From: a virus | Virus record (IMG/VR): IMGVR_UViG_3300025769_000077 | Location: 34,406-98,405 of that record | Reading direction: 5' to 3' (one strand) | DNA: 64,000 nt | In this document: positions 11,634 through 49,260 of the stretch, in pieces | How positions within the stretch are numbered: the stretch's first letter is position 1 | Layout of the letters: each line of letters begins with the position of its first letter | Program-made: the position numbers and the translations under genes | The notes under the pieces: generated by a model | Told to the model about the DNA's origin: nothing | The model's database searches: none | What the model saw: only the letters and a program-made list of their open reading frames with translations

Positions 11634-11920
11634 ACGTTGGAATAAGAAATGTAAGTTATTTTAACGGCTTATATGATAATAAAAGTGAAGAAATAATACT
11701 TCCTACTAACTTGTCTACCAAGTTAGATCTAAGTGCTGTTAAAATAATAAGAATGATGGGTTGCGTATATATGATTCCAACTAAAGAAGGATATTCTGTA
11801 AGGAATCATAAGATATCAATGCCTAGACAAATATTTAAGTTGTATTTTGGAACAACTAAAAAAACCAAGCTAAAATTAATTTTTAAAAAGAATAAAATTC
11901 AAATAACATGTCAAAATTAG
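11630..11920 (+). CDS. hypothetical protein
   Basis: 96-aa ORF overlapping both neighbours. Confidence 0.55.
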   Translation: MNVGIRNVSYFNGLYDNKSEEIILPTNLSTKLDLSAVKIIRMMGCVYMIPTKEGYSVRNHKISMPRQIFKLYFGTTKKTKLKLIFKKNKIQITCQN

Positions 11921-12156
11921 TAACAATTTATTCATCAGTAGGAGAGTCTAAAAAAGAAGTTAGAACTGATGCTGAAAACTGGGGAGAACTTCAAGTAGAC
12001 CTTAATGGAGCAGGTGTATCTATTGATGGAAAAAAAGTAATTCTTAAGCAAACAAAAGCAACTTTAGAAAGTTCTGAAGCTGTATTACCGACTACAGATT
12101 TTGCTATTATGCTTATTCCAGGTAAAGTAAAATCTGGTAACGAAAAAAAGCACTAA
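11908..12156 (+). CDS. ubiquitin-like (beta-grasp) protein with C-terminal ...KVKSG-NEKKH
   Basis: 82 aa; strand-strand-helix-strand pattern; final hydrophobic strand followed by KSG; directly upstream of E2-like, JAB and E1 genes. Confidence 0.7.
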   Translation: MSKLVTIYSSVGESKKEVRTDAENWGELQVDLNGAGVSIDGKKVILKQTKATLESSEAVLPTTDFAIMLIPGKVKSGNEKKH

Positions 12157-12231
12157 GTCCTTGTCGTACTAGAAAAGTCAATGATAATATTGCTAAGTTA
12201 TTTAGTAGTATTCCTAGACAAGACGATAAGG
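12144..12231 (+). promoter_or_regulatory. candidate -1 programmed ribosomal frameshift signal
   Basis: in-frame A_AAA_AAG at 12144-12150; stem CCTTGTCGT/ACGATAAGG begins 8 nt downstream; -1 frame open to TAG at 12288-12290. Confidence 0.6.
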
Positions 12232-12279
12232 AAGATAAAGATGCTCAAGCAGTTCTAAAAAGATTGAAGGAAGAATTCA

Positions 12280-13296
12280 ATGTCGACTAGTAATCAAAGA
12301 TATGAAGGGAGTTATACACTCCCTTCTTCTTATAACAAGGATAATTATGATAAACTAATAGATTTACTGAACTTATATTTTAAGGATAATTGGTGTTTTA
12401 ATAATGATGGTGTTGAATTTACAGGTATTGAGTTAGTTATTAAGTTTGATAGATTGACTATAAGTAATTCTAGAAATAGATCTCATACTATTAATGATTT
12501 ATATGTATTTTTATATATAAATGAACAAGGAATTCTTAACACTGCTAGTATTAAAGGTGGTCGTGGTAAATTAAGTTCAAGTGAATATGCTAGTAATTAT
12601 AAACATTCTCATTTAAGTGGAAATGTTTTAAAAAAAACATGGTTTTGTACCGGAAGTGGTCACATTAATGAAGCTTTAGCTAACTGTTGTGATGAATTTA
12701 ATATAGATAATTTTGATATTCTATTTGCTAATTTATTATCATTTGTTGAATGGGAATCCTTAGAAGGAGTTCCTTATAAATATATGAGTAATATTAGATT
12801 AAATGACGGAGTATCTTATTTATGTATTGATCAAGATTTAACACGTAGAATTATAGAAAAATTAAAAAAAGATGACTTTGATTTAAGTATTAGAACTAAT
12901 CCTACTGTTGTTATAAATCAGAAGTTTATAGATGCTTGTGTTAAAAACGGATGTCCTTTAGGTTACGAAGCAGATAATGGTAATTGGTGTACTGATATAT
13001 CACAACAATCTAGTAATAACTCATTAAAAACAGATTTTTCATTTAAAAACAAAAAAGTTATTTGTGAAATAACTTCAGATATAAATGATAAAAAAGAAAT
13101 TGAAAAAAAACCATATATTAAACAAATAGAAAATGTTGCAAGAACAATTGAAACAAGAATCAAGCTTGAAAGAATCAAAGATTCCTTCTACTCCAGCTCT
13201 GAGGTTAGTGAATTCTGGAAAGAAATTCAAATTAGTGATTTCACAAGAACTGAAGTTGACAATAGAGAAACTATGCAAAGAAATTTCGCATATTGA
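12280..13296 (+). CDS. prokaryotic E2 (ubiquitin-conjugating)-like protein
   Basis: YKHSHL...WFCTGSG resembles the E2 HxH/HPN motif followed by the catalytic Cys; WESLEGVPY; sits between Ubl and JAB. Confidence 0.7.
   Translation: MSTSNQRYEGSYTLPSSYNKDNYDKLIDLLNLYFKDNWCFNNDGVEFTGIELVIKFDRLTISNSRNRSHTINDLYVFLYINEQGILNTASIKGGRGKLSSSEYASNYKHSHLSGNVLKKTWFCTGSGHINEALANCCDEFNIDNFDILFANLLSFVEWESLEGVPYKYMSNIRLNDGVSYLCIDQDLTRRIIEKLKKDDFDLSIRTNPTVVINQKFIDACVKNGCPLGYEADNGNWCTDISQQSSNNSLKTDFSFKNKKVICEITSDINDKKEIEKKPYIKQIENVARTIETRIKLERIKDSFYSSSEVSEFWKEIQISDFTRTEVDNRETMQRNFAY
12304..12330 (+). terminator. terminator-like hairpin inside the 5' end of the E2-like ORF
   Basis: GAAGGGAGT-TATAC-ACTCCCTTC-TTCT. 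Confidence 0.55.
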
Positions 13297-14209
13297 GTGG
13301 TCAGGACCTATCTTTTACGAGATATTAGAAGGAAATATGAAAGATCCTTCTAAGTTGGTTATTAAAGCATTTGACTTTAGATTAATGGATATTGGTACTT
13401 CAGGATATACAGAGTATGAAACTGATGCTGATTTAGGTATGTTTATGTTTGATAATAATTACGTAGATAATATTAAGATGGGTCATATGCACTCTCATCA
13501 TACTATGAAAGCTTACTTTTCTGGTACAGATAATGGAGAATTAATTGACAACGCACCTAACCATAACATCTACTTAAGTCTTATTGTAAATAATAAGATG
13601 GAAAACGTAGCAAGAATTGCTTATGTTGTTAAATCAAATATAGGTGGAACAGTAACAGTAAAAGATATAGATGGTTCTGATTTAGTTCAAGGATATCAAG
13701 ACGAAGATTACATTGAGTATTTAGATGCTGATATTGAATATGAGCAACCTACAATGGATTTTACAGATCTTGAAGCAAGAATTAAAGAATTACGTCCTAA
13801 ACCTAAATCTTATGGTACTTTTATAACACCTGGAAAACATCGTCAAAGTGTATATGGTTTACAACAAACTTTAAAAGATACTCCTGGATTTGAAATTGAT
13901 AAGACTATAAAACTTAAACAATTTGTATCTAAGTTTCTTAAAGGAGTGAGTTTTAGTGGTACACTACAAGACGCAATGAGAGAATTAGCTCTAGCTTATC
14001 CTAGTTCTACTAGTTTTACTCCTTATGTGGAAAAACAACATAGAGAAGGATTTGGTAGAAGAGCTTATGAAACAGTATTTGGATTACCTTATAAACAACA
14101 AGAGTATTACATAATTTTACTTGAAGCTATAATGATGATGGATGATTTAACTTATTGTCAATATCATTTTAACATGTTAATGTCTTGTTTTGAATCATTT
14201 ACAGACTAA
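13133..14209 (+). CDS. JAB/MPN+ (JAMM) metallopeptidase
   Basis: EWSG...GHMHSHHTMKAYFSGTD matches E...HxHx7SxxD. Confidence 0.88.
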   Translation: MLQEQLKQESSLKESKIPSTPALRLVNSGKKFKLVISQELKLTIEKLCKEISHIEWSGPIFYEILEGNMKDPSKLVIKAFDFRLMDIGTSGYTEYETDADLGMFMFDNNYVDNIKMGHMHSHHTMKAYFSGTDNGELIDNAPNHNIYLSLIVNNKMENVARIAYVVKSNIGGTVTVKDIDGSDLVQGYQDEDYIEYLDADIEYEQPTMDFTDLEARIKELRPKPKSYGTFITPGKHRQSVYGLQQTLKDTPGFEIDKTIKLKQFVSKFLKGVSFSGTLQDAMRELALAYPSSTSFTPYVEKQHREGFGRRAYETVFGLPYKQQEYYIILLEAIMMMDDLTYCQYHFNMLMSCFESFTD

Positions 14210-14871
14210 TGAGTAGATTTGAAAGATTTAAAGAAGCAGCATGGTTCGGTATGAACGAATTACCTGTTGTTGTAGGTGGAGTAGGTGGAATCGGTTCTTG
14301 GGTAGCTTTATTGTTATCCAGAACCGGTTGTAACCTTATAATCTATGATATGGATATTGTAGAAGAAATAAATATGGCAGGACAATTATACAGTACAGAT
14401 AGTATAGATCAGTTAAAAATAGATGCTGTTACAGATATTGTAGATAAATTTAGTCCTGGCACTGAAATCGATTCTTTTGAAGAATACGATGAAGAAGGAA
14501 TGGTAACTCCTATTATGTTTTCTTGTTTTGATAATATGAAAGCTAGAAAGCAAATGTTTGAAAACTGGAAGAAACAAGAAGATAGAGAGTTATTTATAGA
14601 CGGTAGACTTTTAGCTGAACATTATCAAGTGTTTGCTGTAAGAAAAAGTCAAGAAAAAGAATACGAAAAACACTTATTTTCTGATGATGAAGTAGAAGAA
14701 GCTCCTTGTTCGTATAAACAAACTTCACATTATGCTGCAGGAATTGCATCTAAAATGGTTGCTTGTTATACAAATTACTTAGCTTTAAAAGCAGAAGATG
14801 AAACTGCTGAAGTTCCTTTCTATCATGAGTTTATGGGTAAAATATTTTATTTAGAATGTTATTACGTATAA
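14209..14871 (+). CDS. ThiF/E1-like adenylating enzyme
   Basis: GGVGGIGS, YDMDIVEEINMAGQ, CFDN, IDGR; candidate catalytic Cys in EAPCSYKQT. Confidence 0.9.
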   Translation: MSRFERFKEAAWFGMNELPVVVGGVGGIGSWVALLLSRTGCNLIIYDMDIVEEINMAGQLYSTDSIDQLKIDAVTDIVDKFSPGTEIDSFEEYDEEGMVTPIMFSCFDNMKARKQMFENWKKQEDRELFIDGRLLAEHYQVFAVRKSQEKEYEKHLFSDDEVEEAPCSYKQTSHYAAGIASKMVACYTNYLALKAEDETAEVPFYHEFMGKIFYLECYYV

Positions 14872-35817: not shown

Positions 35818-38800
35818 TTAACATTCTTTATTTACTTCATCCGCTTGATCATCCGATACATCATCAAAGGTAAGATTATCACTTGAAGATTGTATAGCTG
35901 AAGTTGGTTTATTCAATTTGCCTGTATCAAACCATTCTTTACTAAATATTACATTAGGAGGTATTGGACCTGCTTGATTAAACATTTCAATCATTTCAAG
36001 TCCTGTATAACCATTAAGAGATCTTTCAGTAGTATTTCTATAAGCTATTTTAAATTGTCTACGTTTATTAAAGTTACCAGTTTGTGCTGTTTTATATAGT
36101 TTTTTAATATTTTCAACAATTTGTGCTGGAGTTAAACTTTTCTTTTTACCAGGTCCTGTAACAGTAGTTAACCCATAAGCTTGTCTACTATCAGATAATT
36201 TATTATCCATTTTCTCACCTTGTTTAACTCCAAATTGAGTACTAGCTACTAAAGCAGCTCCACCTGTACCTTTAGATGGATTACCATTTATTCCCAACGG
36301 ATTACTTCCAAATACAAATACTGTATTAGGTTCAGGTTTTATGTTACCTTCATAATATTGAGAACTTTTATTAGAACTTTTTGTATTCATTACATCTCTT
36401 AGACTAAGTTTTATACTCTTCTCTATCTTAGGAGCTTCTGTTAAGAATGAACTACCTGAGTTGTAAGCTACTGTTACCGGTAGAATAGCTATATTCTTAA
36501 CTTTCTCTGATGTAAGATTAGTAAACATTTGTCTATAAGCATTAACTTGATCAGTCCATTTCTCTGTATCTGATTTACCATACTTAAAGCTATCTTTATA
36601 TTTAAGACTTGTTTTAGTCTTAAGATCTAAGATGCTATAAGTACCATCTGAGTTTACCATAATAAGGTCTACAGTTCCTGCTACTTTCTTAACTGGATCA
36701 AATAGTACAATATCATTAGATACTATCTTAGAACCTTCAGGTAAACTAGCTTTAATGTTTTCAAGTTGCTTCTTAAGCTCCATGTAATGCTTAAGATTCT
36801 TAAAGATAGGATAGTTTTTAAATGTCTGTAGATTACCTTTAAAGAAATCTCTTACAAATTCGTCTATACCATTTCCTATGTCTTGAGCTGTTTTAAGAAT
36901 TTGTCTATTCTCATCAGTTTCTACTATCTTATTACCTACAAAGTCTGATACTCTAGTGTATAGGTCACCAGTAGGTATATGTCTATAGAACTTCTTATCT
37001 GCAGTTAATTCAAAGTCTTCAGAGCTTTCTATTAAATTATCAATAGTAAGGTCACCTGATGTAGGAGTAATGTTTTGTTCAATAGCTTCTGCAGGTAAGT
37101 TGAATCCTTTGTTATCAAACATATACTCACTTACTACGTTACCTTTTTTACTTCTTATACCAAGTGTATTTATCTTTTGGTATTCATACTTTCCTACTTT
37201 TTCAAATAGATCAAAACTTGTATCACCGGTTCTTCGTTTAATAAATCTTCCTTTGTTAACACCATCTTTTAATATTAGAATTTCGTCTTTAGATTTACCT
37301 ATATTAATCTCATCAGTCATTACGAAATCTACAAATGGTAACTTATTGAAGTTATTCTTTATGTACTGATCAACAAAGTTTGTAATATAAGAAGGTACTT
37401 CAGCTGTAGAAGGATCACCATGATATATTCTGTTTTCTAAGAATTCATTAAGTGACTGTCCTTCTTCATTCATTAAGCTTCTAAAATATGAAACCGGTAA
37501 TAGATTACCCATTCCATTAGGACTCACATTTAATCCTCCTGCATGAAAAGAGAAAGCAGCTAAGTCTTGACCCATCTTAGATACTTCAGGATTACTGTTT
37601 GTAATCATTTCTTCCCATATCTTAGATATGTGATCTTTATCTTGATGATCAAGTCCGGATGCTCCTCTAAATATAGGTACGAATATTCCAGAATCAGTTT
37701 GTACATCACCTATAAACTTAAAGAATGGTTCAAACTGTGGATATTTTTCTATGAATTTCTTTCTAGATTCGGAGTTAATTCTTGGTAATATAGTAGAATA
37801 GTGTTCTCTAAATGGACCAAAATCAGAAGCTAAGTATCTTAAGTATTCATTGTTTATAGTATTAATTTGTTCTGAACTTAAAGGTTGATTTGTTTCTTTA
37901 AGTGTGATTTCTTGCAATAAGTTCTTAACAGCTATAAAATCAGGTTCAAAGAAAGGAACATATTCTTTCAATATAGATAAAGGTTCTACAAATCCTTTCT
38001 GATAGAAAGAATCCATTGAAGGATTGTTCACAAATGTTAAGTAATCACGTAATCCGGATAACAATAAGCTTTCTCCTTTATCTAACAATAACTCTCTAGA
38101 TCTAATTACAGCTTCAGTATTAGCTGTTGATGGACCAGTAGGCATAGCATCTACTCTAGTAGCTTGTACTGTCTTAGATAGATGTGAAGCCATTAATTGA
38201 TACATCTCAAAAGCTTTAAATACTTTATGTTGAAAGTCTATGTCTTTCTCTAACTCTAAGTCACGATGTTTAATTAAATCAGAAGTATTGATGTTTTGAT
38301 ATTTAAAAGTAGACTTATCACCTTCTTTTACTTCAACGTCATTTTTAATACCTGCTCTTTTAAACATGTTTCTTACTTCAGTTAAAGCAGTACTTAAAGC
38401 TTTCTTACCTCCTCCATTTTTAAAGTATATCTCTGATATCTTTTTAACAACAGGTTGAGTTAAGAAGTAACTAGCAGTTTCTTCAGTATAACCAACTCTG
38501 TTAATAAGAGCAGCTATATCAGCAGTTAAAGGGTTAATGTTCAAGAATCCTAATACTGGGTTCTTACCGTTATCCACAGATGCAGCTAAGTAAGATGCCA
38601 TTACTTTAGATACCCTTTTTCCATTAGCGTTTCTTTTAAGAGATAAAGACATACCAATTGGTTTATCTTGTGTACTATCGTACTTGTTATCAAATAACAC
38701 AGGTAACTTAGTTTTAACATTATGGTTTTGCATAGTAGCATGTGAAGCATTATGGTTAGCAAATACACCTACTAATGACTTACCAGTCATCATTTGTTCA

Positions 38801-41800
38801 AATACTTTAAGTCTTGTTGAGTTATAAGTTAATCCTAAATCTCTATTACCTTTATCTATTTCTGCTCTTTGTAACTTATCAGCTAATCCTTCTAATTCTT
38901 TAAATTCGTTAGGGTTAAATATAGCTTCTAATGTTTGAGGAGCAGATAATACTTGTTCCATTAATTCAATACGTCTTGTATTGTTTGTATTCTGTACAGA
39001 GTAATAACCATTAGTTACATCCATATCCTTTTTGATAGCATAAACTTTATCAATATCAAAGTCAAGACCTGCAATAGAAGTAATTTCTGGAGGAAGTATT
39101 ATTGTACCACCACTTGCTTCAGGAGTAAAACCGGTAATCTTAACTTTAATCATTGAATATTTATCCTCAGTTGGAATACGATATGTGATTATATCTAAGA
39201 GAGATTTATCAAAATTAGGATCTCTTAATACTTTATCAATATCTGGTTCACCATCTGTCATATATTTTTCTGGTATATTCTTACCAAATATAAAAGAAGC
39301 AGGTACATATCCTTCAAAGTGATCTAATGCTCCATTTTCTTTAAATACAATTTTAGGTTGTTTATCCCAACCCCAAGCTGTTTGGTTAATTAATACACCA
39401 CCTGGAGCTTTTTGTTTAATTACTCTATTGGTAAAAAAAGATGTAAGTAAAGATTCTATTCTGTATACATGTACAGGATGCCATAAAGGTAAAGCAGTTT
39501 CTCCTGTTCTAGTATCAACTATTTCAAGAGCTTCTATATACTTTTCACCTAATCCTCTATCTTCTACTTCTTTAATTAATTCTTTAACTAATTCTGTTTT
39601 ATTATTGAAAGGAGCATTTTCTCCTTCAGTTAATTCTTTAAATGATTCTTCTATATCCTGTACAGTAATAGCTTCATATTCTTTAAGAATTTCTTCTGCA
39701 GATACTCCATTATAAGATCCTTCTATATCTGCCATTATAAGTTTACGTATCTGAGTACCTAATAGATTATTATGGTCTATATGATGTAAAGGAGTTTCTA
39801 ACTGAATACGATAATCTGCATTAGATAAGGTTACATACTTTCTTTCATCAGCTTGTTCTTTATAATCAAAATCTAAAGCTGGTATATTATCATTAGGTTG
39901 TACATTATGTATACCCACTTTGAATGTTTCAGATGTTTGTAATGCATCTATTTTTCTAGCATTAGGATTATACTGCCAACTATTACCACTGAATTCCCAA
40001 CCCATATGTTCCATTATCTCTCTCATTATTTTATTCTTAGCAGCAACTTGAGGTACTAATAATGCTTCAGAGTTTTTAACTTGTATAGGAACTCTTCTAC
40101 CGTGTGTAGTTATATGACCAAAATAGAAAGGTTTAAACACGTTGAATACAGAGTCGTTGAACTTTTCTCCATTAATCATTTTGTTATAGAGTTCTTCTTT
40201 TCTGTGATCCCATCTACCTGCTCCTATTTCTATATCTCTTAGTCTTACAATATCAATAAAACCTTGAGCATCAGTAACAGAAGAGCTTTTATAATGAAGT
40301 CTAATTATTTCATCAGCATCTCGTTTAGATACTCCTGTTTTAATTAAGTTTTCTCTTAATACTTCCTTAAATGGTCTACCATTTAATTCAGTTTCTATGT
40401 CAATGTCTTCTATAAAACCTACTCTATATTCATCTGAAATAGTATGTTGATTTCCTTTTACATCTTCATAAACAGCTTCTGTATCTAAATGCATACCTGG
40501 AGAAATAGTTTGTTTATTTCTTTTATAAAATGCTCCAGCTACAGTATGTCTATCTTCACCGGTTCCTTTTTCTGATGCTTTATATTTATCTCTTTTATAA
40601 AAAGCTGGATCACCTGAAAATAAAGATACAATTTGCGATTGCATTAGTAAGTCATTAATTAAGAATCTTCTTAAGTTATTCTTAAGATCTTTATTAAAGT
40701 TATGACTAAAGTTATCAGCTGCATCTACCCATTTACCATCTTTCATTTCAATCATACCTATTTCTTGTAGGTAATTGATTTCTCTTTCTACATAAGCTTC
40801 TATTTGAGCATCTAATTCATTTTCTTTTTTACCATCCATAAAAGGAAGTAAGAAAAAGTTCTTATTGTTTTTATTGTAGTTCTTAAATACTTCTTGTCTT
40901 TCACTAAAGTTTTTATTTCTTTCTACTTCTTGTTGATATACACTTCTTAATCTATCTTTAGCTTCTTCTACAGTATATTTCTTCCATCTAAACATTACCA
41001 TGGTAGGTGAATCAGAAAGTATTTGATGTGAATAATAAGCTTCATTACCTCTAAAGTCCCATGCATTTATAGTTACTTTAGCTAAAGTTGATTTATCCAT
41101 ATTTGCATACTTAATACCATTACTTACATTGTTTCCTCTATAACCATCAAGTATAGCAAAGTCCATATCTCTTTCTTCTAATTCATCTAATAAGAATGAA
41201 TTTTCATAGAAAGGATCTTTACGGTATTCATCTAGTTTATCTTTTAGTACTTTTAATTGCTTGGTAGTAAAAGAAGAGTTTATGTGAGAGTAAACTACTT
41301 TACCTTCTACGTTCCTAAAACCTAATTGATAGTATTGAGGTTTAGTTTTTTTGATAACATTTACTACATTATCTAAGTTAGAAGATTCTTCCTCAAATAC
41401 ATTCTTATTAGCTCTAGCTTGTTTGATGATTAGATCTAAACTATCATTTACTGTTGATTTGTCTGTATCATCTAAACCAATGAATGCTTTAGATTCTTCT
41501 TCATTCATTGTAATACCTACTTGATCAAGTATAAACTGTACTTCTTTAAAGTCTTCTGTGTACAGTAATCTTTTGATATCAATAGGTTCTTTAAGATTTC
41601 TCTTACTTGCTTCTATTTTCCAATCTTCAATTAATACATTTCTAACACTAGCTTGATTAGATGGAAATACATTGAAGTTGTTGTAAGTGACATTCCTTCC
41701 CTCATATTGATTAAATACTTTATTCTTTTTATTAGTTATCATTATAAACTCAGCATGAGCTTTAGCAGCTATCTGAGTATAGATATGAGTATCTAATCCG

Positions 41801-44800
41801 GTAGGTAATTGAGTAGTAGGTATATTTAATTCAGACCTTAATGATCCCTGAAAATCATCAACTAGGTCACTATAGATTATGGCTAGTTCAGGTTTAAGTT
41901 CAGTTAGTTTTTCTAACTTTTCCATCATATCTTTCTTACTGTAACTATCAGCTAATTCTCTTTGCAAATAGTTATACATGTAAGAAGGGTTATGGTAATC
42001 TACAAAACCAAACTCGTCTCTTACTATATCTAAATAACCTTCATTGTCTATTTTTACTTTAGGAATAGAAGTTAAGTACTTCTTAAGCTTATCACTTAAT
42101 CGATTCTTTAATGATATCTGCATATCTACGTTTTGCCAACCTTCGTAATGTTCTGAGTTTTCATCTAATTCAATATCAGCATAATCATCTAAGCTTTGTT
42201 TGAATTGATATCCATATACATCAACACCTCTTTTTATTCTTTCATATAGATTAGGTTTAAGTTTACCTGTTCTATTATCATATAGTTCATTAATCAAAGT
42301 ATTTAAGAATGATTTAGAAGCACCTTCTGGGAAACCTTCTTCATATTCCATTAATGTGCTAACTACATCTAAGTAAAGACTCTCAACACCTACTCTTCTA
42401 AATATTTGACTATCTGATAAAGTAGGATATTGTTCTCTTAAATCAGCTACTGTAGTAGTAAATAAAACTCTATTAACTAACTCTACTGCTTTAACAACTC
42501 CTTTAGGTCCTAACTCTGAACTAAATCTTGTAAACCTTTGTGAACCTGATATAGGAGTTTTATAAGTTTTAGTACTCATTTTAAAGAATAGATCTTCCAG
42601 TGAAGGATCCATAAATACTTCTTTAATAGTCAACCATAACTTTCTGAAAAAGTCTTTAATAGGTTGAGACCAAGAAGGATTCATTTCTCTAGTTATAGTA
42701 TACTCTTTATATCTTTCAGCTAACCATTCTTCTTTTTGAAGAGTAGTGCCTTCAGGGCTTAACTTTAAAAGTTGTTTCTTTTCACTAGCTGTACTGAACA
42801 TATTAAAGATAACGTGGAAACCTTCGTGATATGGAGTACCTTTAGCTGCATCAGATGATATGTAAACAGCACCATCTTTAAATACACCCCATGCTTTAAC
42901 ACCTCCATAACCATGAATTTCTCTTAGGTTATCTAACACGCTAATAGGTACATTAGGGAATTTCTTTTTAAACCAAGCTAGTTCTTTTTCTTCATTCCAT
43001 TTTTCAACTTGTTGACCGGTATCAATAGATAATAAGGACTTACCTCCTTTATTTGGATTTCTTCTAATTTTTACATTAGGTTTATTCCATTTACCTGATG
43101 ATGGTTTAGTTTCTTTTTGAGTCTCAAATGAATTAAAATCTATTCCTATTTTAGTTGAATGTACTTGTTCAGTTAAGTGTAGATTTGTTTTATATCTATT
43201 TGCAAACTTCTTACCATTAGATGTTATATCATTTAAAGGTAAGTGAGAAACTCTATTATCTAAGTTAAGTAAGTCATAAGCTTGTTGACCGTTTAATCCT
43301 TTAACAATCTTATTTTCTACTTTTACATTCCATCCACTTCCTTTAGTAAAGGATACATCTTTAATATCTTCCCAATATACAATAGTTCTTAATTGTTCTA
43401 GTTTATCTTTCCAATTATTCTCTGTTGCGTTATTAAGTAAAGACATTATACGTTCTTTTACTTCCGGAACATCTTTTATCTTTTTAGTAAATAATCTATG
43501 TGGAGTATAAGAACCATCTGCCATTGGTACTAATATGTAAACACCACCTTTGTTTACTGTACCAGAATTAACAAATATTCCTTTATGATTATGTTTAAGT
43601 ATCGTACCACCTTCAAGTTTAACACCAACAGCTAATTTAACATCCATATCTATTTCAGTTAAATCTCTAATAGCATCAGTTCTTACTCTACCTGGTTTTA
43701 CTTCATCTACTCTAATAGTCTTATCTAAAGTAACTACTCCTATTTTACCTTTTAATTCTTGATCAATTGCTTTTCTTAAATCAAGTAGTTGTTCATTTCC
43801 TGAACCTCGATATGCTTTTAGCATACCAACTACTTTTCTATTAGAAAGATCTTTGTTCTCTCTGTTACCGTCTATATACTTAACAAAAAGTACTTTACGT
43901 TTCATAAATCCTTCTGATTCAAATCGATCATTAGTATCTATTTCTAAGTGTAAAGTATCTCCTACTTTTACACCTCCTTTATTTAAGTAGTTCCAATCTA
44001 CTCCAATAGTATTTTTATCAGAAGGAATAGGTTTACCGGTTTCATCTACATTAGTTATCCAATACTTATCTTCTTTAACCATTTCCATTTCTTCTGCTTG
44101 AAGTAATGAAGGACTAGTTAAAGGTTGAGATGTAACATCAGTATTTCTATCGTGATGGTTAGTTAAAGTAGTTCTAATAGGAGCATGTTCTTCTACAGGT
44201 TCATAAACTTCTTCTTTTGTTTCTTGTCTTATTGAATCAAAGAATTCGTCTTGACGTTCTTGTAAGTCTATTTGTTCTCCTATCTCTTCTACTGTTTTAT
44301 TTAATTCTTCAAAATTCTTTTTTAGAATATCTTCAATTTTAGAAATATTATTGTTAAATATTGCTTGTTCTCTTTTACTTAATGGAGCATTTTGTTTAAC
44401 TTTTTTAGCAATACTTTCTAATATAGTATCAGAAACTTTACCTGTATTTACAAATTCATTAAAGATTTCTTCTGATATAGTTTCTTTTACTTCTTCATTG
44501 GAGAAAGGACTTTTTAATGCTTTTAATTCAGCACCATATTTAGCATTGATTTTATCTTGTACTGTTTCAGTACTATTTTGTGTAAAAGTAGCTTCTGTAA
44601 AATTTTGAATTTGGGGAGTAGTGATAATATCAGAAATAGCAGAATAAAGTGAATCTGCTGCATTATTTTTTACTTTTTTACCTGTAAATAAATCTGTAAT
44701 AAAAGAAATAATACTTTCAAATACATTTTTATTTTTAGAATTATACCTTAAATTTTCAGGTAGTTCTATTCTTTGTAATGCTGAAACAAATCCTTCATTA

Positions 44801-47800
44801 GACATCTCTGCCATTAATTCAGACATATTAACTAATCCATACTCTTGACCTCCAAAATATGTATTAGCATCTAGTGTTTTAAGGTAATTAAATATTTGTC
44901 CTATTTTTTGTACAGCTTCTACTTGTACAGTATTTAACTGTCCTTTATATTTACCTTTTTTTGTATTAGTATAAACGTCATTATATACAGTTTGTGTAAC
45001 ACCATGTATTAATTCATGTGTAATAGTATATTGTATAAAACTTTGAAAAGTAGTTAATCCTTTTACACCTAAGAGTTTACCACCTGCTCTTCCTTTATTT
45101 TGAAGCATATTTTGATAGCTTTCATAAAGAGCGTTTAGATTTATTGTTACAACTCCTGTTTGACTACTAAAACTACCACCTGCTCTGCTATCTAATTCTT
45201 GAACACCATTTGTAAATAAAACCTTGATGTTAAATTGATTAGCCGCATTTAATATTAAATTAAACAACTGCTGCCCAAAAAGAGAGTCACTTAATATTCC
45301 AATCTTTTTTAATTCATTTAAACTTATTTGTTGTTCTATTGGTAAACTATTTACAAAAGAAAGCTCTCTTCTTCTTTCTATATCAGCTTTTTGAGCTTTT
45401 ACTTTTGAAGTTTGCACTTCTTTCCTCCCTTGCGTGGTTTCTTTTTCATTTGGTCTTAATTTATTGTATAACTTAAGAGCTTCTATTGAATTAACACCTA
45501 ATATTCTAGATATCCTTTTAACATTCTGAGCTTTAGAGTATCTATCTAATCCTTGAGTAATTGATTTAATCTGTTTAGGAGTAGCGTTTATTCCTTCAAA
45601 TACTTTTTCATATTCAATATCTTGCTCAACTTCTTGTTCTTCAGCTTTGTTTCTTCTTATTATTTCTTCAACATCAGCTTGATATCCTTCAACATCATCT
45701 ATGTCTTGATAAGCTTCATCTAATTCTTGAAGTTGTTTTAATAGTTTTTCTTGTACTTCTCTAGCAGCTCTATTTTTTCTTTTAGAGTCTTTTTCTTGCT
45801 GAGTTCTTTTTGCAGCTTCAAAGGCAGTTTCTGCTGCATCTCTATTAGGTTCTTCATTTTTTACTTTTTCGTTTTGTTCTTTAACTTCAAATCTAGGTAA
45901 TTTAGTATGAAATAGTTCTGTTTTAATAACTAAGTTCATAGCTCTTAATTGACTAACTGCTTTCTTTTCATTAGTCAGTAATTCAGCTATATCTTGTTTA
46001 CTTAAACCGGCTCTACCAAGTACTTGTTCATTTTGAGCAATGTACTGTTTTAATGCAGCAATTGCATCTCTTATTTCATTATGTCGTTTACCTAATTCAA
46101 TAGTGTCTTTTATTTGAGTTATATCAAATAGTTCTACGTAATTGTCAGCTAATTCAGTAAACTCTTTAGCTAAACTAGGTGTAACTATATCTAAGGTTAC
46201 TTCATTTAATAAAGTAATATAGATTACTTGATCTATAATTATTTCATCTGTAAACTTAACTGGTCCTTGTGGACCTATAAGAGTAACTTCTTTAACGTAG
46301 TTCTTATTTCCTTTTCTGTCGTATAACTCTTCTATATCAGAAGGAATTGTATAATCTATTCCTCTTATTTTTAAAGTACCATTATCGTTTACATTAACTG
46401 TATAATCCTCTCTATTGATGTTTTTATATCCTGCAAATACTGATTCTAAATATTTTTCAGTAGCAGCAGCGTCGTCTTCATAAGGATCTATTTTATTGTC
46501 TCTAGCGAAGTACTCATCTATAATTTGTTGTTCTCTTAAGAATGCATAGTTCAATATAGATAAATGATTTTCTGATATATCTATAGTACTAGAAGCTTTA
46601 TACATTTCTTCTTTTACGTCCTTACCGTATCGTTCAATTATCTCATTTACTTTAATAGCTTCTTGGTTAAGATCTTCATTTGAAAGAGTTCTTAATCTAT
46701 TTCTATATTCTGAAAGTAATTGTTTATTAAATGCTTTGGTATTAGCATGTCTAATATGTTCTACGTTATTGATTACATTGTGTATTTCAATACCTTCTTT
46801 CATTAAGTAACCAATAGTTATATCGATACCTTTTATAACTTGATTTAAAGATTCAATCAACTCTTCAGCTTTTCTTATCTGATTAATCTTTCTATCAGTA
46901 AATCTATCTTTAGTTTCCTGGTTAAAGTTTTTATATTGAATGTTTTGAATACTTTCACGCATCTTAGGAATAGATGCTTTTACTTTTTCTATTTCATCCT
47001 TAGTTTCCTGAATACGTTCTTTAGATCTCTTTATGTTAGATTTGATTTCTTCTATCTTATCTTGTCTATTCTTTACAAATACAAAATCAATTAAGTCTTC
47101 TACAGTACTTAATTTAGCATCGTATTTTTTATTAAATTTACTTAGTTCATCTCTAAATAAAAGATCTCTACCTTCATATCTATTTTTAATATCCTTATCT
47201 GTAGGGTTTTCAGGTAAGGCAGGTGCTTGTTCTTTTTGCTCTTTTATCTTTTCATTTAAAATAGTATTAAGTTCCTGTTTACCGTTGTCAGATAAATCTT
47301 TAAAAAGATCTACAAATTCATCATAAGATTCAAAACTACTAGCAGCTTGTAACTTTTGTTTTTCTTCTCTTTGTTTCTTTTTAGTTAATCTGTCTTTTCT
47401 TCTACCGGTAATAGAATCAATAGCTGGATTGATTTCATGATCAATAAATGAACTAATATCTACAGCTTCAAATACTTTACTTAATAGTATTTCATCGTAC
47501 TCTGTAGAAATAGTATCTAATGGATTACCATTTTTATCTTTAGTTGCTTTATCGTATTTTATTCTATTGTTTTCTAAAGCTTTTATACGGTCATCGTATA
47601 TTCCATTTTCATTTTTCTCTTTAAGTCTTTCTATCAAAACATCAGTAGCATCTCTAGCTAACATATTATTATAAGCAGCTAATTGATCTGATGTATAATC
47701 ATCTCCTAGTTTACCTAAAGTTTCTTTTATAAAAGAACTTATTTCATCTTGTTGAACTTTAAATAGTTCTTTATGAGCCATTAAAGCAAGCTTTTCTATT

Positions 47801-49248
47801 TGCTCTTCTTTAGATAGAGTACCATCTTTCTTAATAGCATTAAAGTTTTTATGAAATTCATCAATTACTTTTACATATTTAGCTGCTTTAGGATTAGATT
47901 CACTAGCGTCTTGGTATTCTTCTCTTACTATATCTAATCTACCTCTATTAGCAGCATCGATTAACTGTGCTGTAAAAGATCTATCTGTTGCTATATTATA
48001 AGTTGTTTCATCACCAAGTAATTGACCAATCATAGCTTGAGCATTATCTCTTAGTTTTTGCTCTTGACTTGAATCACTTCCTTGTGATATATATCTAGCT
48101 AAAGAACCTGCTCCAGAAAATACTCCACCACCTATAGCACCAAACCAAGCTGATGTCCACATCTCAGGATCTTTTACATAGTTTTCAAATCTCTTTCCAA
48201 ATCCTTTACCATATACAGAATCAAGTTGTCCTAATCCTTTACCTACAGCTTCTTTATTTGTCATAAATTGATATGACTCTTCAATTGCTTCAGAACCCAT
48301 TTGACCGATACCTTCAGCTATCTTTCTACCTATTGACTTTTTAGCTTCTCTTGTTGCAACATTAGCTAAATCTGAGAAACCTCTATACATCATAATGTAT
48401 TGAGGTAAGTCTAATACAATAGCAGCACTGTTAGCTCTCCATGCTGAAGCAGCACCGTCAGATGCCATCTCTGTAGCTTTCATGTCATTAAGTCCCATTT
48501 GCTTAGCTTTCTGAAATATTTCATCATATGTTTGCTGAGCTTCCATGGTATTTTCCATATAACGAGAAACAATAGCACCGGTAATACCTTTAGTTAGTTT
48601 TTGAGCATTAGCTCCTTTTAAAAACTTAGAACCTGCTCCTAATAGCTTACCTGCTAAACCTAAGAGTCTTACTGTTCCTACTGCAGGAATCATTAATGAT
48701 AATGAAGTTGCTACTGATTTAATATTAGAACCCCACCATGTAGCATCCCATGGAGCAAATCCTTCTGCATCTTTAGTTTTAATTATACCTAAAACATCTT
48801 CTTGTAATGATTCTTTGTGTTCTGCAACCCAACTAGAAAACCAGTTAGAGTATTCTTGTGTAGCTTCTTTATAGTCTTCTTTACCTGCGTTAGCTATATC
48901 TTTAGCAATAGTTCCGTATTGTTCAAAGTCAAGTAAGTATCCAATACCTTCTGCTGTACCTAATACAACTTCTGCTAAACCTTGTCCAAAACCTTTTCCC
49001 CATACTTCCAATGCAGATTGACTTTGAGCAGCTTGTTCTTTTAGATCTATACCTGTAGCTTCTACAGGAGTGTCTAATTTAGAAAATACTTTATCAGCTA
49101 AATCAGCATCCATGGTTCTATATGGACGATCTGGAGAATAAGGTCTCTCAGGAGTGCTTTCAAATGCTAAGTTGTCTAAACCTCCCATCTTAACTGTAGA
49201 CTTAGGTTTACTATCCAGGTTAGTTATTGGATCAAGAAAATTACTCAT
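35818..49248 (-). CDS. virion-associated RNA polymerase polyprotein (crAss-type)
   Basis: catalytic GLDFDIDK, RIPT, TDAQG, GTQIRKLI, SVDNGK; also HELIH and HEGFH zincin motifs and a C-terminal PD-(D/E)xK domain. Confidence 0.92.
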   Translation of the reverse strand: MSNFLDPITNLDSKPKSTVKMGGLDNLAFESTPERPYSPDRPYRTMDADLADKVFSKLDTPVEATGIDLKEQAAQSQSALEVWGKGFGQGLAEVVLGTAEGIGYLLDFEQYGTIAKDIANAGKEDYKEATQEYSNWFSSWVAEHKESLQEDVLGIIKTKDAEGFAPWDATWWGSNIKSVATSLSLMIPAVGTVRLLGLAGKLLGAGSKFLKGANAQKLTKGITGAIVSRYMENTMEAQQTYDEIFQKAKQMGLNDMKATEMASDGAASAWRANSAAIVLDLPQYIMMYRGFSDLANVATREAKKSIGRKIAEGIGQMGSEAIEESYQFMTNKEAVGKGLGQLDSVYGKGFGKRFENYVKDPEMWTSAWFGAIGGGVFSGAGSLARYISQGSDSSQEQKLRDNAQAMIGQLLGDETTYNIATDRSFTAQLIDAANRGRLDIVREEYQDASESNPKAAKYVKVIDEFHKNFNAIKKDGTLSKEEQIEKLALMAHKELFKVQQDEISSFIKETLGKLGDDYTSDQLAAYNNMLARDATDVLIERLKEKNENGIYDDRIKALENNRIKYDKATKDKNGNPLDTISTEYDEILLSKVFEAVDISSFIDHEINPAIDSITGRRKDRLTKKKQREEKQKLQAASSFESYDEFVDLFKDLSDNGKQELNTILNEKIKEQKEQAPALPENPTDKDIKNRYEGRDLLFRDELSKFNKKYDAKLSTVEDLIDFVFVKNRQDKIEEIKSNIKRSKERIQETKDEIEKVKASIPKMRESIQNIQYKNFNQETKDRFTDRKINQIRKAEELIESLNQVIKGIDITIGYLMKEGIEIHNVINNVEHIRHANTKAFNKQLLSEYRNRLRTLSNEDLNQEAIKVNEIIERYGKDVKEEMYKASSTIDISENHLSILNYAFLREQQIIDEYFARDNKIDPYEDDAAATEKYLESVFAGYKNINREDYTVNVNDNGTLKIRGIDYTIPSDIEELYDRKGNKNYVKEVTLIGPQGPVKFTDEIIIDQVIYITLLNEVTLDIVTPSLAKEFTELADNYVELFDITQIKDTIELGKRHNEIRDAIAALKQYIAQNEQVLGRAGLSKQDIAELLTNEKKAVSQLRAMNLVIKTELFHTKLPRFEVKEQNEKVKNEEPNRDAAETAFEAAKRTQQEKDSKRKNRAAREVQEKLLKQLQELDEAYQDIDDVEGYQADVEEIIRRNKAEEQEVEQDIEYEKVFEGINATPKQIKSITQGLDRYSKAQNVKRISRILGVNSIEALKLYNKLRPNEKETTQGRKEVQTSKVKAQKADIERRRELSFVNSLPIEQQISLNELKKIGILSDSLFGQQLFNLILNAANQFNIKVLFTNGVQELDSRAGGSFSSQTGVVTINLNALYESYQNMLQNKGRAGGKLLGVKGLTTFQSFIQYTITHELIHGVTQTVYNDVYTNTKKGKYKGQLNTVQVEAVQKIGQIFNYLKTLDANTYFGGQEYGLVNMSELMAEMSNEGFVSALQRIELPENLRYNSKNKNVFESIISFITDLFTGKKVKNNAADSLYSAISDIITTPQIQNFTEATFTQNSTETVQDKINAKYGAELKALKSPFSNEEVKETISEEIFNEFVNTGKVSDTILESIAKKVKQNAPLSKREQAIFNNNISKIEDILKKNFEELNKTVEEIGEQIDLQERQDEFFDSIRQETKEEVYEPVEEHAPIRTTLTNHHDRNTDVTSQPLTSPSLLQAEEMEMVKEDKYWITNVDETGKPIPSDKNTIGVDWNYLNKGGVKVGDTLHLEIDTNDRFESEGFMKRKVLFVKYIDGNRENKDLSNRKVVGMLKAYRGSGNEQLLDLRKAIDQELKGKIGVVTLDKTIRVDEVKPGRVRTDAIRDLTEIDMDVKLAVGVKLEGGTILKHNHKGIFVNSGTVNKGGVYILVPMADGSYTPHRLFTKKIKDVPEVKERIMSLLNNATENNWKDKLEQLRTIVYWEDIKDVSFTKGSGWNVKVENKIVKGLNGQQAYDLLNLDNRVSHLPLNDITSNGKKFANRYKTNLHLTEQVHSTKIGIDFNSFETQKETKPSSGKWNKPNVKIRRNPNKGGKSLLSIDTGQQVEKWNEEKELAWFKKKFPNVPISVLDNLREIHGYGGVKAWGVFKDGAVYISSDAAKGTPYHEGFHVIFNMFSTASEKKQLLKLSPEGTTLQKEEWLAERYKEYTITREMNPSWSQPIKDFFRKLWLTIKEVFMDPSLEDLFFKMSTKTYKTPISGSQRFTRFSSELGPKGVVKAVELVNRVLFTTTVADLREQYPTLSDSQIFRRVGVESLYLDVVSTLMEYEEGFPEGASKSFLNTLINELYDNRTGKLKPNLYERIKRGVDVYGYQFKQSLDDYADIELDENSEHYEGWQNVDMQISLKNRLSDKLKKYLTSIPKVKIDNEGYLDIVRDEFGFVDYHNPSYMYNYLQRELADSYSKKDMMEKLEKLTELKPELAIIYSDLVDDFQGSLRSELNIPTTQLPTGLDTHIYTQIAAKAHAEFIMITNKKNKVFNQYEGRNVTYNNFNVFPSNQASVRNVLIEDWKIEASKRNLKEPIDIKRLLYTEDFKEVQFILDQVGITMNEEESKAFIGLDDTDKSTVNDSLDLIIKQARANKNVFEEESSNLDNVVNVIKKTKPQYYQLGFRNVEGKVVYSHINSSFTTKQLKVLKDKLDEYRKDPFYENSFLLDELEERDMDFAILDGYRGNNVSNGIKYANMDKSTLAKVTINAWDFRGNEAYYSHQILSDSPTMVMFRWKKYTVEEAKDRLRSVYQQEVERNKNFSERQEVFKNYNKNNKNFFLLPFMDGKKENELDAQIEAYVEREINYLQEIGMIEMKDGKWVDAADNFSHNFNKDLKNNLRRFLINDLLMQSQIVSLFSGDPAFYKRDKYKASEKGTGEDRHTVAGAFYKRNKQTISPGMHLDTEAVYEDVKGNQHTISDEYRVGFIEDIDIETELNGRPFKEVLRENLIKTGVSKRDADEIIRLHYKSSSVTDAQGFIDIVRLRDIEIGAGRWDHRKEELYNKMINGEKFNDSVFNVFKPFYFGHITTHGRRVPIQVKNSEALLVPQVAAKNKIMREIMEHMGWEFSGNSWQYNPNARKIDALQTSETFKVGIHNVQPNDNIPALDFDYKEQADERKYVTLSNADYRIQLETPLHHIDHNNLLGTQIRKLIMADIEGSYNGVSAEEILKEYEAITVQDIEESFKELTEGENAPFNNKTELVKELIKEVEDRGLGEKYIEALEIVDTRTGETALPLWHPVHVYRIESLLTSFFTNRVIKQKAPGGVLINQTAWGWDKQPKIVFKENGALDHFEGYVPASFIFGKNIPEKYMTDGEPDIDKVLRDPNFDKSLLDIITYRIPTEDKYSMIKVKITGFTPEASGGTIILPPEITSIAGLDFDIDKVYAIKKDMDVTNGYYSVQNTNNTRRIELMEQVLSAPQTLEAIFNPNEFKELEGLADKLQRAEIDKGNRDLGLTYNSTRLKVFEQMMTGKSLVGVFANHNASHATMQNHNVKTKLPVLFDNKYDSTQDKPIGMSLSLKRNANGKRVSKVMASYLAASVDNGKNPVLGFLNINPLTADIAALINRVGYTEETASYFLTQPVVKKISEIYFKNGGGKKALSTALTEVRNMFKRAGIKNDVEVKEGDKSTFKYQNINTSDLIKHRDLELEKDIDFQHKVFKAFEMYQLMASHLSKTVQATRVDAMPTGPSTANTEAVIRSRELLLDKGESLLLSGLRDYLTFVNNPSMDSFYQKGFVEPLSILKEYVPFFEPDFIAVKNLLQEITLKETNQPLSSEQINTINNEYLRYLASDFGPFREHYSTILPRINSESRKKFIEKYPQFEPFFKFIGDVQTDSGIFVPIFRGASGLDHQDKDHISKIWEEMITNSNPEVSKMGQDLAAFSFHAGGLNVSPNGMGNLLPVSYFRSLMNEEGQSLNEFLENRIYHGDPSTAEVPSYITNFVDQYIKNNFNKLPFVDFVMTDEINIGKSKDEILILKDGVNKGRFIKRRTGDTSFDLFEKVGKYEYQKINTLGIRSKKGNVVSEYMFDNKGFNLPAEAIEQNITPTSGDLTIDNLIESSEDFELTADKKFYRHIPTGDLYTRVSDFVGNKIVETDENRQILKTAQDIGNGIDEFVRDFFKGNLQTFKNYPIFKNLKHYMELKKQLENIKASLPEGSKIVSNDIVLFDPVKKVAGTVDLIMVNSDGTYSILDLKTKTSLKYKDSFKYGKSDTEKWTDQVNAYRQMFTNLTSEKVKNIAILPVTVAYNSGSSFLTEAPKIEKSIKLSLRDVMNTKSSNKSSQYYEGNIKPEPNTVFVFGSNPLGINGNPSKGTGGAALVASTQFGVKQGEKMDNKLSDSRQAYGLTTVTGPGKKKSLTPAQIVENIKKLYKTAQTGNFNKRRQFKIAYRNTTERSLNGYTGLEMIEMFNQAGPIPPNVIFSKEWFDTGKLNKPTSAIQSSSDNLTFDDVSDDQADEVNKEC

Positions 49249-49252
49249 ACTA

Positions 49253-49260
49253 CAAATATA
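49253..49260 (-). promoter_or_regulatory. Bacteroidota sigma70 -7 element (TATATTTG)
   Basis: exact TAnnTTTG 4 nt upstream of the vRNAP ATG. Confidence 0.65.

Follow-up and report, generated by a model that had tools for sequence, protein, structure and literature searches.

How is the end of a phage gene for a ubiquitin-like protein (Ubl) decoded when its stop codon lies directly behind a slippery sequence and the neighboring frame is open? This question is raised by a locus in the window, i.e. the whole stretch of DNA that was analyzed, which comprises the last 64 kb of a 98,405-bp IMG/VR virus record (IMGVR_UViG_3300025769_000077; ~98% complete, ~31% G+C). According to the open reading frame (ORF) list, the Ubl gene (11908-12156, + strand) encodes 82 amino acids (aa), consisting of a beta-grasp domain that ends in KVKSG, with the Gly77 codon at 12136-12138, and the tail NEKKH. 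The 3' end of the ORF reads TCT GGT AAC GAA AAA AAG CAC TAA, with the 0-frame stop TAA at 12154-12156. One codon before this stop the slippery heptamer A_AAA_AAG (12144-12150) is present in the Ubl frame, within a run of seven adenines (A7, 12143-12149). Based on the evidence described below, we favor, with modest confidence, a programmed -1 ribosomal frameshift at the Ubl 3' end that would give rise to an 82-aa and a 127-aa pro-Ubl. Such a mechanism is of a known kind, the textbook -1 frameshift, while its setting is new.

Candidate frameshift signals at the 3' end of the Ubl gene

The AlphaFold model of the 82-aa product had a predicted local distance difference test (pLDDT) score of 81, and its top PDB matches were mostly ubiquitin or Ubl domains (template modeling scores 0.6-0.66). 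Across the 98-kb genome just six in-frame A_AAA_AAG sites were found in ORFs of at least 60 aa, and the one at 12144-12150 was the sole site adjoining a stop codon with a long open -1 frame. It is followed by 46 open -1 codons, compared with 2-11 at the other five sites, all of which are located far from a stop. The context of the Ubl site is more than chance, and the signals at the Ubl 3' end are confirmed as a real, non-random observation.

The -1 ORF (12150-12290, + strand) consists of 46 sense codons (12150-12287, ALSPCRTRKV...LKEEFNVD) and the stop TAG at 12288-12290; upstream, the -1 frame is closed by TAA at 12138-12140. Translation across a slip at the heptamer yields 81 + 46 = 127 aa, so that the -1 ORF would extend Ubl to 127 aa. 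When the -1 ORF was scanned for start codons, neither ATG nor GTG was found, and a single TTG is located 8 codons before the stop. The first-pass annotation had reported the in-frame heptamer before the Ubl stop, a -1 frame without ATG that is closed upstream and open to 12290, and an overlap of this frame with the ATG of the downstream E2-like gene at 12280; sequence and translation agree with each of these statements, and all coordinates are right.

Off-frame stop-to-stop pieces in this genome have a mean length of 6.9 codons, and 0.23% of them reach 49 codons. Codon usage was scored with tables trained on 57 ORFs of at least 150 aa. With stop codons included, the 46 codons scored 24.6, while in-frame 46-codon gene windows scored 25.1 ± 7.4 and 0 of 1088 off-frame windows reached the value of the -1 ORF. 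After stop codons had been removed from the model, the -1 ORF scored 16.75 versus 19.3 ± 7.2 for in-frame windows; open off-frame windows (n=13) scored -19.3 ± 9.0 with a maximum of -4.4, none of them reaching the -1 ORF. The -1 ORF is coding, and its codon usage is gene-like right from the slip site. Its first 13 codons, which precede the first ATT, had a score of 2.3 that was reached by 0.9% of 1504 open off-frame windows. As these codons are already gene-like, translation seems to enter the -1 frame at or near the heptamer and not at an internal codon.

An extended hairpin of 75 nt (12158-12232, + strand) with a 10-bp basal stem follows the heptamer and is a candidate frameshift stimulator. 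Its stem (CCUUGUCGU/ACGAUAAGG), which the first reading of the sequence had placed 8 nt behind the heptamer, is the base of the minimum-free-energy structure, and the spacer amounts to 7 nt when the stem includes the closing U-A pair and to 8 nt when it does not. The hairpin has a folding free energy of -21.5 kcal/mol (z -4.2; 0 of 200 shuffles folded equally well), was also recovered when 231 nt were folded, and ranks in the top 1.1% of 13,112 overlapping 75-nt windows from both strands of the whole genome. Two parts of a programmed -1 frameshift cassette were found here, namely an X_XXY_YYZ heptamer in the upstream frame and a stable structure within the spacer range of 5-9 nt. No Rfam family matched the site at 12158-12232. 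A role of this hairpin as a terminator was rejected, as no U-tract is present behind the stem.

Extensions and terminators in the family of phage Ubl homologues

Relatives of the Ubl were collected by a full HMMER search of 1.84 billion representatives, in which 599 were found and the best 150 analyzed. In these 150 proteins KVKSG, with an invariant Gly, closes an N-terminal Ubl domain; in the alignment of relatives W25 and G77 are invariant. An in-frame extension of at least 12 aa follows KVKSG in 115 of the 150, giving total lengths of 98-354 aa, while 17 have tails of 1-11 residues and 20 are outside the motif filter. P0077 (1111 aa), in which 10 stretches were matched, was considered as a poly-Ubl and rejected as an unrelated repeat protein. 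Among 46 IMG/VR loci 34 encode a fused form, 11 a short tail and one (L008) is outside the filter. Nine of the 11 short-tail loci harbor a separate small ORF of 41-137 aa directly 3' of the Ubl gene, and in five of these nine the ATG of the small ORF overlaps the Ubl stop (TAATG), which places the small ORF in the -1 frame. The gene order primase - Ubl - E2 - JAB is constant wherever the locus or contig extends far enough downstream.

A homologous Ubl with 34% identity is also encoded by Flavobacterium phage FpV4 (Fipvunavirus; ALN97166.1, phrog_15560, 289 aa) in the same order primase - Ubl - E2 - JAB - E1. There, one continuous ORF (L001:2360-3229) that is annotated as hypothetical comprises the Ubl in the first ~85 residues and an extension of ~200 aa, and it contains no slippery site.

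The ratio of nonsynonymous to synonymous substitution rates was 0.15-0.47 for extensions and small ORFs versus 0.11-0.28 in the Ubl domain itself; the former two evolve fast, yet under purifying selection. Pfam revealed no domain in the extensions of the relatives. These extensions measure 20-270 aa, some being strongly acidic and others lysine/alanine-rich (histone-H1-like).

In 24 relatives the region downstream was scanned for terminators, defined as a G+C-rich hairpin followed by a T-run. In 23 of the 24, a terminator-like hairpin lies a few to ~35 nt downstream of where the extension ORF stops, and in 22 of these 23 loci it precedes the E2 start, the exception being L030. In split forms it follows the small ORF and not the Ubl gene. 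The expectation from shuffled sequence is 1.2 terminator-like sites per 4.6 kb on both strands, and the placement in the relatives is far above chance. The unit of the family is [Ubl][extension or small ORF][terminator][E2-JAB-E1], and the position of the terminator before E2 suggests an excess of Ubl transcript relative to the enzymes. In the window, consensus scan and folding detected a terminator-like element at 12304-12336 (+ strand; hairpin proper 12304-12326), with a 9-bp stem that includes 5 G-C pairs and with a U-rich tail. It lies 14 nt 3' of the stop of the -1 ORF, within E2 codons 9-16, and the -1 ORF therefore fills the slot that is held by extensions elsewhere.

Proposed frameshifting and its alternatives

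The signals, the coding character of the -1 frame and the architecture of the family are shown by the sequences; slipping, cleavage by the JAB peptidase and any function of the extension are inferred from them, and decoding could proceed as follows. The majority of ribosomes would read A_AAA_AAG, CAC and the stop codon and produce the 82-aa pro-Ubl, with a tail of five residues after the reactive Gly77. A minority would pause at the hairpin 7 nt downstream, shift back by one base while on the two Lys codons and continue for 46 further codons, resulting in a 127-aa pro-Ubl with a charged C-terminal extension. Both forms would be cut after Gly77 by the neighboring JAB peptidase, releasing the same mature Ubl together with either a pentapeptide or a peptide of ~50 aa. 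Frameshifting would thereby hold the ratio of extension to Ubl below 1:1, while in relatives this ratio is fixed at 1:1 where the two are fused in frame, or variable where the small ORF is separate. The initial proposal of 82- and 127-aa isoforms sharing one mature Ubl gained support from codon usage, from the slot and terminator of the relatives and from the nine contigs described below, whereas the slip itself is unproven; the frameshift interpretation as a whole is plausible and strengthened, and it is unproven.

Several observations weigh against this interpretation. The length of the A7 tract was taken from assemblies. The -1 peptide has no detectable homologue among 5.8 billion proteins or in INPHARED. 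It was not found by a hidden Markov model of 107 extension C-termini, it reached rank 3 of 626 decoys with 22 bits when compared to the extensions by BLAST, it scored below zero with a Gibbs-sampled position-specific scoring matrix, and the small ORFs of the split forms are not similar to it. Homology to the extensions of relatives, proposed by eye from ...LKEEFNVD and ...IKREFNIFD, was accordingly put aside, as the tests failed or were marginal; positional equivalence only is claimed here. No frameshift arrangement was found in the 46 IMG/VR loci or in FpV4, and two of the 11 short-tail loci (L013 and L027) are without any extension. Strong RNA structure 3' of the Ubl gene is frequent in relatives, where it is mostly a terminator. 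Finally, a Capnocytophaga (Flavobacteriaceae) genome carries both tRNA-Lys(CUU) and tRNA-Lys(UUU), and, by analogy with work in E. coli in which slippage on AAG is lowered by a cognate CUU tRNA, such a pair may reduce slipping at the heptamer. The best cellular homologues of the phage uracil-DNA glycosylase are almost all from Bacteroidota. Among 15 loci sampled from a Psychroflexus metagenome-assembled genome, tRNA-Lys TTT was the only form seen, and ARAGORN found no tRNA gene in the 98-kb phage genome.

The A tract was followed in other sequence collections. Nine contigs, taken from JGI/IMG, Logan and ENA, encode the exact 82-aa Ubl product. When the 5.8 billion proteins were searched with the -1 peptide, neither a fused 127-aa form nor a separate homologue was revealed, and therefore no A8 version exists in any of the assemblies of this collection. 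The closest relative, P0002 (83% identity, on another contig of 64.6 kb), ends right after ...SGNEKK. This short form (...SGNEKK*) was seen at the protein level and is compatible with a slippery site; searches for the underlying DNA gave no match by protein in viral or metagenome contigs, nor by a degenerate DNA pattern for PGKVKSGNEKK.

A real deletion of 1 nt, or a phase-variable A tract, could have broken an ancestral in-frame fusion, and the extension would then not be made in A7 genomes. We regard this as possible but not probable, and it is harder to exclude than an assembly error. The ORF would still be open either since the event was recent or because A8 variants keep up selection. If the ancestor read GAA AAA AAA GCA, the loss of one A (A8 to A7) leads to precisely the present sequence, nearby off-frame stop included. 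The in-frame heptamer then arises automatically, a point that the first reading of the sequence had missed, so the heptamer is no independent evidence against an indel. Moreover, fusion is the rule in the family, none of the other relatives employs a frameshift, and as L013 and L027 exist without an extension, its loss may be tolerated. Against a deletion stands a non-terminator hairpin from the top 1% of the genome at the optimal spacing of 7 nt: among 23 long fused relatives a comparable structure at this position occurs in one lineage only (L036, L041 and L046), and the other strong structure signals in fused relatives are mostly terminators. In addition, no decay of the -1 ORF is apparent from its openness or its codon usage, neither an A8 nor a fused product occurs in any assembly of the protein collection, and the 83%-identical relative is short as well, which argues that the state is not very recent. 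Recoding is favored over a silent indel because the hairpin has the right spacing, the -1 ORF is without decay and a diverged relative is short too.

Translation of the -1 ORF as a separate small protein, either from a non-canonical start (ATT at 12189 or 12210) or by re-initiation after the UAA at 12154-12156, appears improbable. A precedent is found in the nine relatives with a separate small ORF in the slot, five of which begin in the -1 frame where TAATG overlaps the Ubl stop; the corresponding site of the window has TAAGT. However, no ATG, GTG or TTG is located near the 5' end of the -1 ORF, gene-like usage is already seen in the 13 codons that precede the first ATT (p ~0.009), ATT starts are weak, and both the heptamer and the spacing of the hairpin would be left unexplained.

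A homopolymer error in sequencing or assembly, with A8 and a single 127-aa ORF in the true genome, would fit a site that is a homopolymer in a metagenome-assembled virus record as well as a family in which fusion is the norm. Such a simple error is nevertheless unlikely, to the point that we give it very little weight, because the identical 82-aa product is present on 9 contigs from three independent collections, the 127-aa form is absent from the 5.8-billion-protein collection and a different virus, represented by P0002, also has the short ORF. RNA polymerase slippage adding an A to some transcripts, by which recoding would be transcriptional and not ribosomal, can hardly apply either: although the site is an A run and slippage of this type operates in Thermus dnaX and in some IS elements, known cases have runs of ~9 or more, and the combination of A7, a following G and a hairpin 7 nt further on is the mark of ribosomal recoding.

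The downstream module, known systems and significance

The E2-like gene (12280-13296, + strand) is in the same frame as Ubl, and its 5' end, from the ATG on, covers the last 11 nt of the -1 ORF. Stop-codon read-through from Ubl into E2 was rejected, as three 0-frame stops intervene. Across 19 homologues H109, S110, H111, L112, F122, C123 and G125 are invariant. The model of the E2 protein had a pLDDT of 76, and 49 of the 50 top structural matches were UEV or UBC folds (VIA Z 7.1-5.2); with these middling Z values a UBC/UEV-like fold is supported rather than proven. A search of viral contigs with the E2 protein revealed no close relative.

It had further been suggested that only shifted ribosomes reach the E2 start. 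This found no support as a general rule, as E2 starts after terminator and spacer in 22 of 24 relatives, and because E2 starts on its own after the terminator in most relatives, coupling is not a family trait. The E2 ATG is located upstream of the terminator-like hairpin in the window and in L030. A weak A/U-rich hairpin (12264-12281, AUUGAA/UUCAAU) with the purine-rich loop GGAAGAA pairs the first two bases of the E2 AUG. Judged from the sequence, the 11-nt overlap and this AUG hairpin may allow coupling of E2 here; they do not show coupling. In a speculative and doubtful extension of the frameshift model, the locus would act as a recoding valve for the whole operon, in place of the plain terminator of relatives. 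The fraction of slipping ribosomes would set the amount of the released peptide of ~50 aa; slipped ribosomes reaching 12290 would open the E2 AUG hairpin, come to stand beside the terminator hairpin (12304-12326) and raise both terminator read-through and translation of E2-JAB-E1, and in this way set the ratio of Ubl to the enzymes.

A JAB/JAMM peptidase gene (13133-14209, + strand) with the motif H-S-H-x7-S-x-x-D gave weak matches to Prok-JAB (Pfam) and to JAB in PADLOC, and is homologous to the neighbor gene in FpV4 and to genes in IMG/VR loci. The peptidase is predicted to cleave pro-Ubl behind Gly77. Between its longest ORF and the 3' end of the E2 ORF there is an overlap of 164 nt (13133-13296), similar to FpV4 with 125 nt (L001:4439-4563). 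The gene for E1, a ThiF-family adenylating enzyme, follows at 14209-14871 (+ strand; PF00899, E 4e-17; phrog_15670, E 2e-56). In the 5' part of its coding region, in the GxGxxG region, a hairpin is present at 14267-14350 (-38.1 kcal/mol over 111 nt, z -5.0), within which lies the most stable of all 75-nt windows in the genome. All four module proteins (Ubl, E2, JAB and E1) are labeled 'unknown function' in PHROGs. In PADLOC, Ubl and E2 matched no defence model and E1 matched only generic E1-E2 models at 5e-9 or weaker. Elsewhere in the window, on the - strand, a single ORF of ~4,480 codons (35821-49260) encodes a giant protein.

The putative frameshift site resembles those of E. coli dnaX and of the IS3 family (IS911 and IS150) in its 0-frame A_AAA_AAG, a stem-loop a few nt downstream and two products with a common N-terminal part. 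In contrast to these, no Shine-Dalgarno-like stimulator is evident upstream, and the likely host belongs to the Bacteroidota and is not an enterobacterium. Whereas the dnaX shift truncates its protein, the shift at the Ubl site would extend it, and no similarity in sequence or in Rfam exists between the sites. In T7 gene 10A/10B and lambda G/GT a phage -1 shift likewise occurs just before a stop codon, so that part of the product gains a C-terminal extension and the ratio of the isoforms is fixed. Those products are a capsid protein and a tail chaperone and are made with other slippery sequences, while the product here is a Ubl precursor from which the extension is expected to be cut off.

With a beta-grasp protein ending in a conserved Gly, an adjacent ThiF-type E1, an E2 of predicted UBC fold with C123 and a JAMM peptidase, the phage module shares with Bil (BilABCD) the gene set of Ubl, E2, JAB peptidase and E1 as well as residues after the reactive Gly of the Ubl. 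The JAB peptidase of Bil cleaves after this Gly, even in a Ubl-GFP fusion (PMC10557695), and BilA homologues have overhangs of 2-9 aa (bioRxiv 10.1101/2023.09.04.556158). Unlike Bil, for which no frameshift is described, the module is encoded by phages, adjoins a primase gene and has extensions of 20-270 aa. The module appears Bil-like by composition and, judged by PADLOC, not a member of the Bil family by sequence. Eukaryotic ubiquitin fusions (ubiquitin-ribosomal protein fusions and polyubiquitin) are alike in being precursors with a C-terminal polypeptide that is released at the terminal Gly. Their extensions are non-homologous and are made at 1:1 by in-frame fusion, while frameshifting at the phage locus would be substoichiometric.

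In a literature search of incomplete coverage, no paper was found on the phage module or on frameshifting within a Ubl gene, and we know of no earlier recoding event in a prokaryotic or viral ubiquitin-like system. If the frameshift is real, it would be the first known case of recoding in such a system, in which a phage tunes the ratio of Ubl to a co-made polypeptide. The picture of the family may matter more: it raises the question of the role of the released extension, and it reveals a large, unannotated group of Bacteroidota-type phages that carry primase - Ubl - E2 - JAB - E1. In this group the phage Ubl is usually a precursor with a long extension under selection, or is coupled to a small ORF, followed by a terminator, in parallel to the ubiquitin fusion precursors of eukaryotes.

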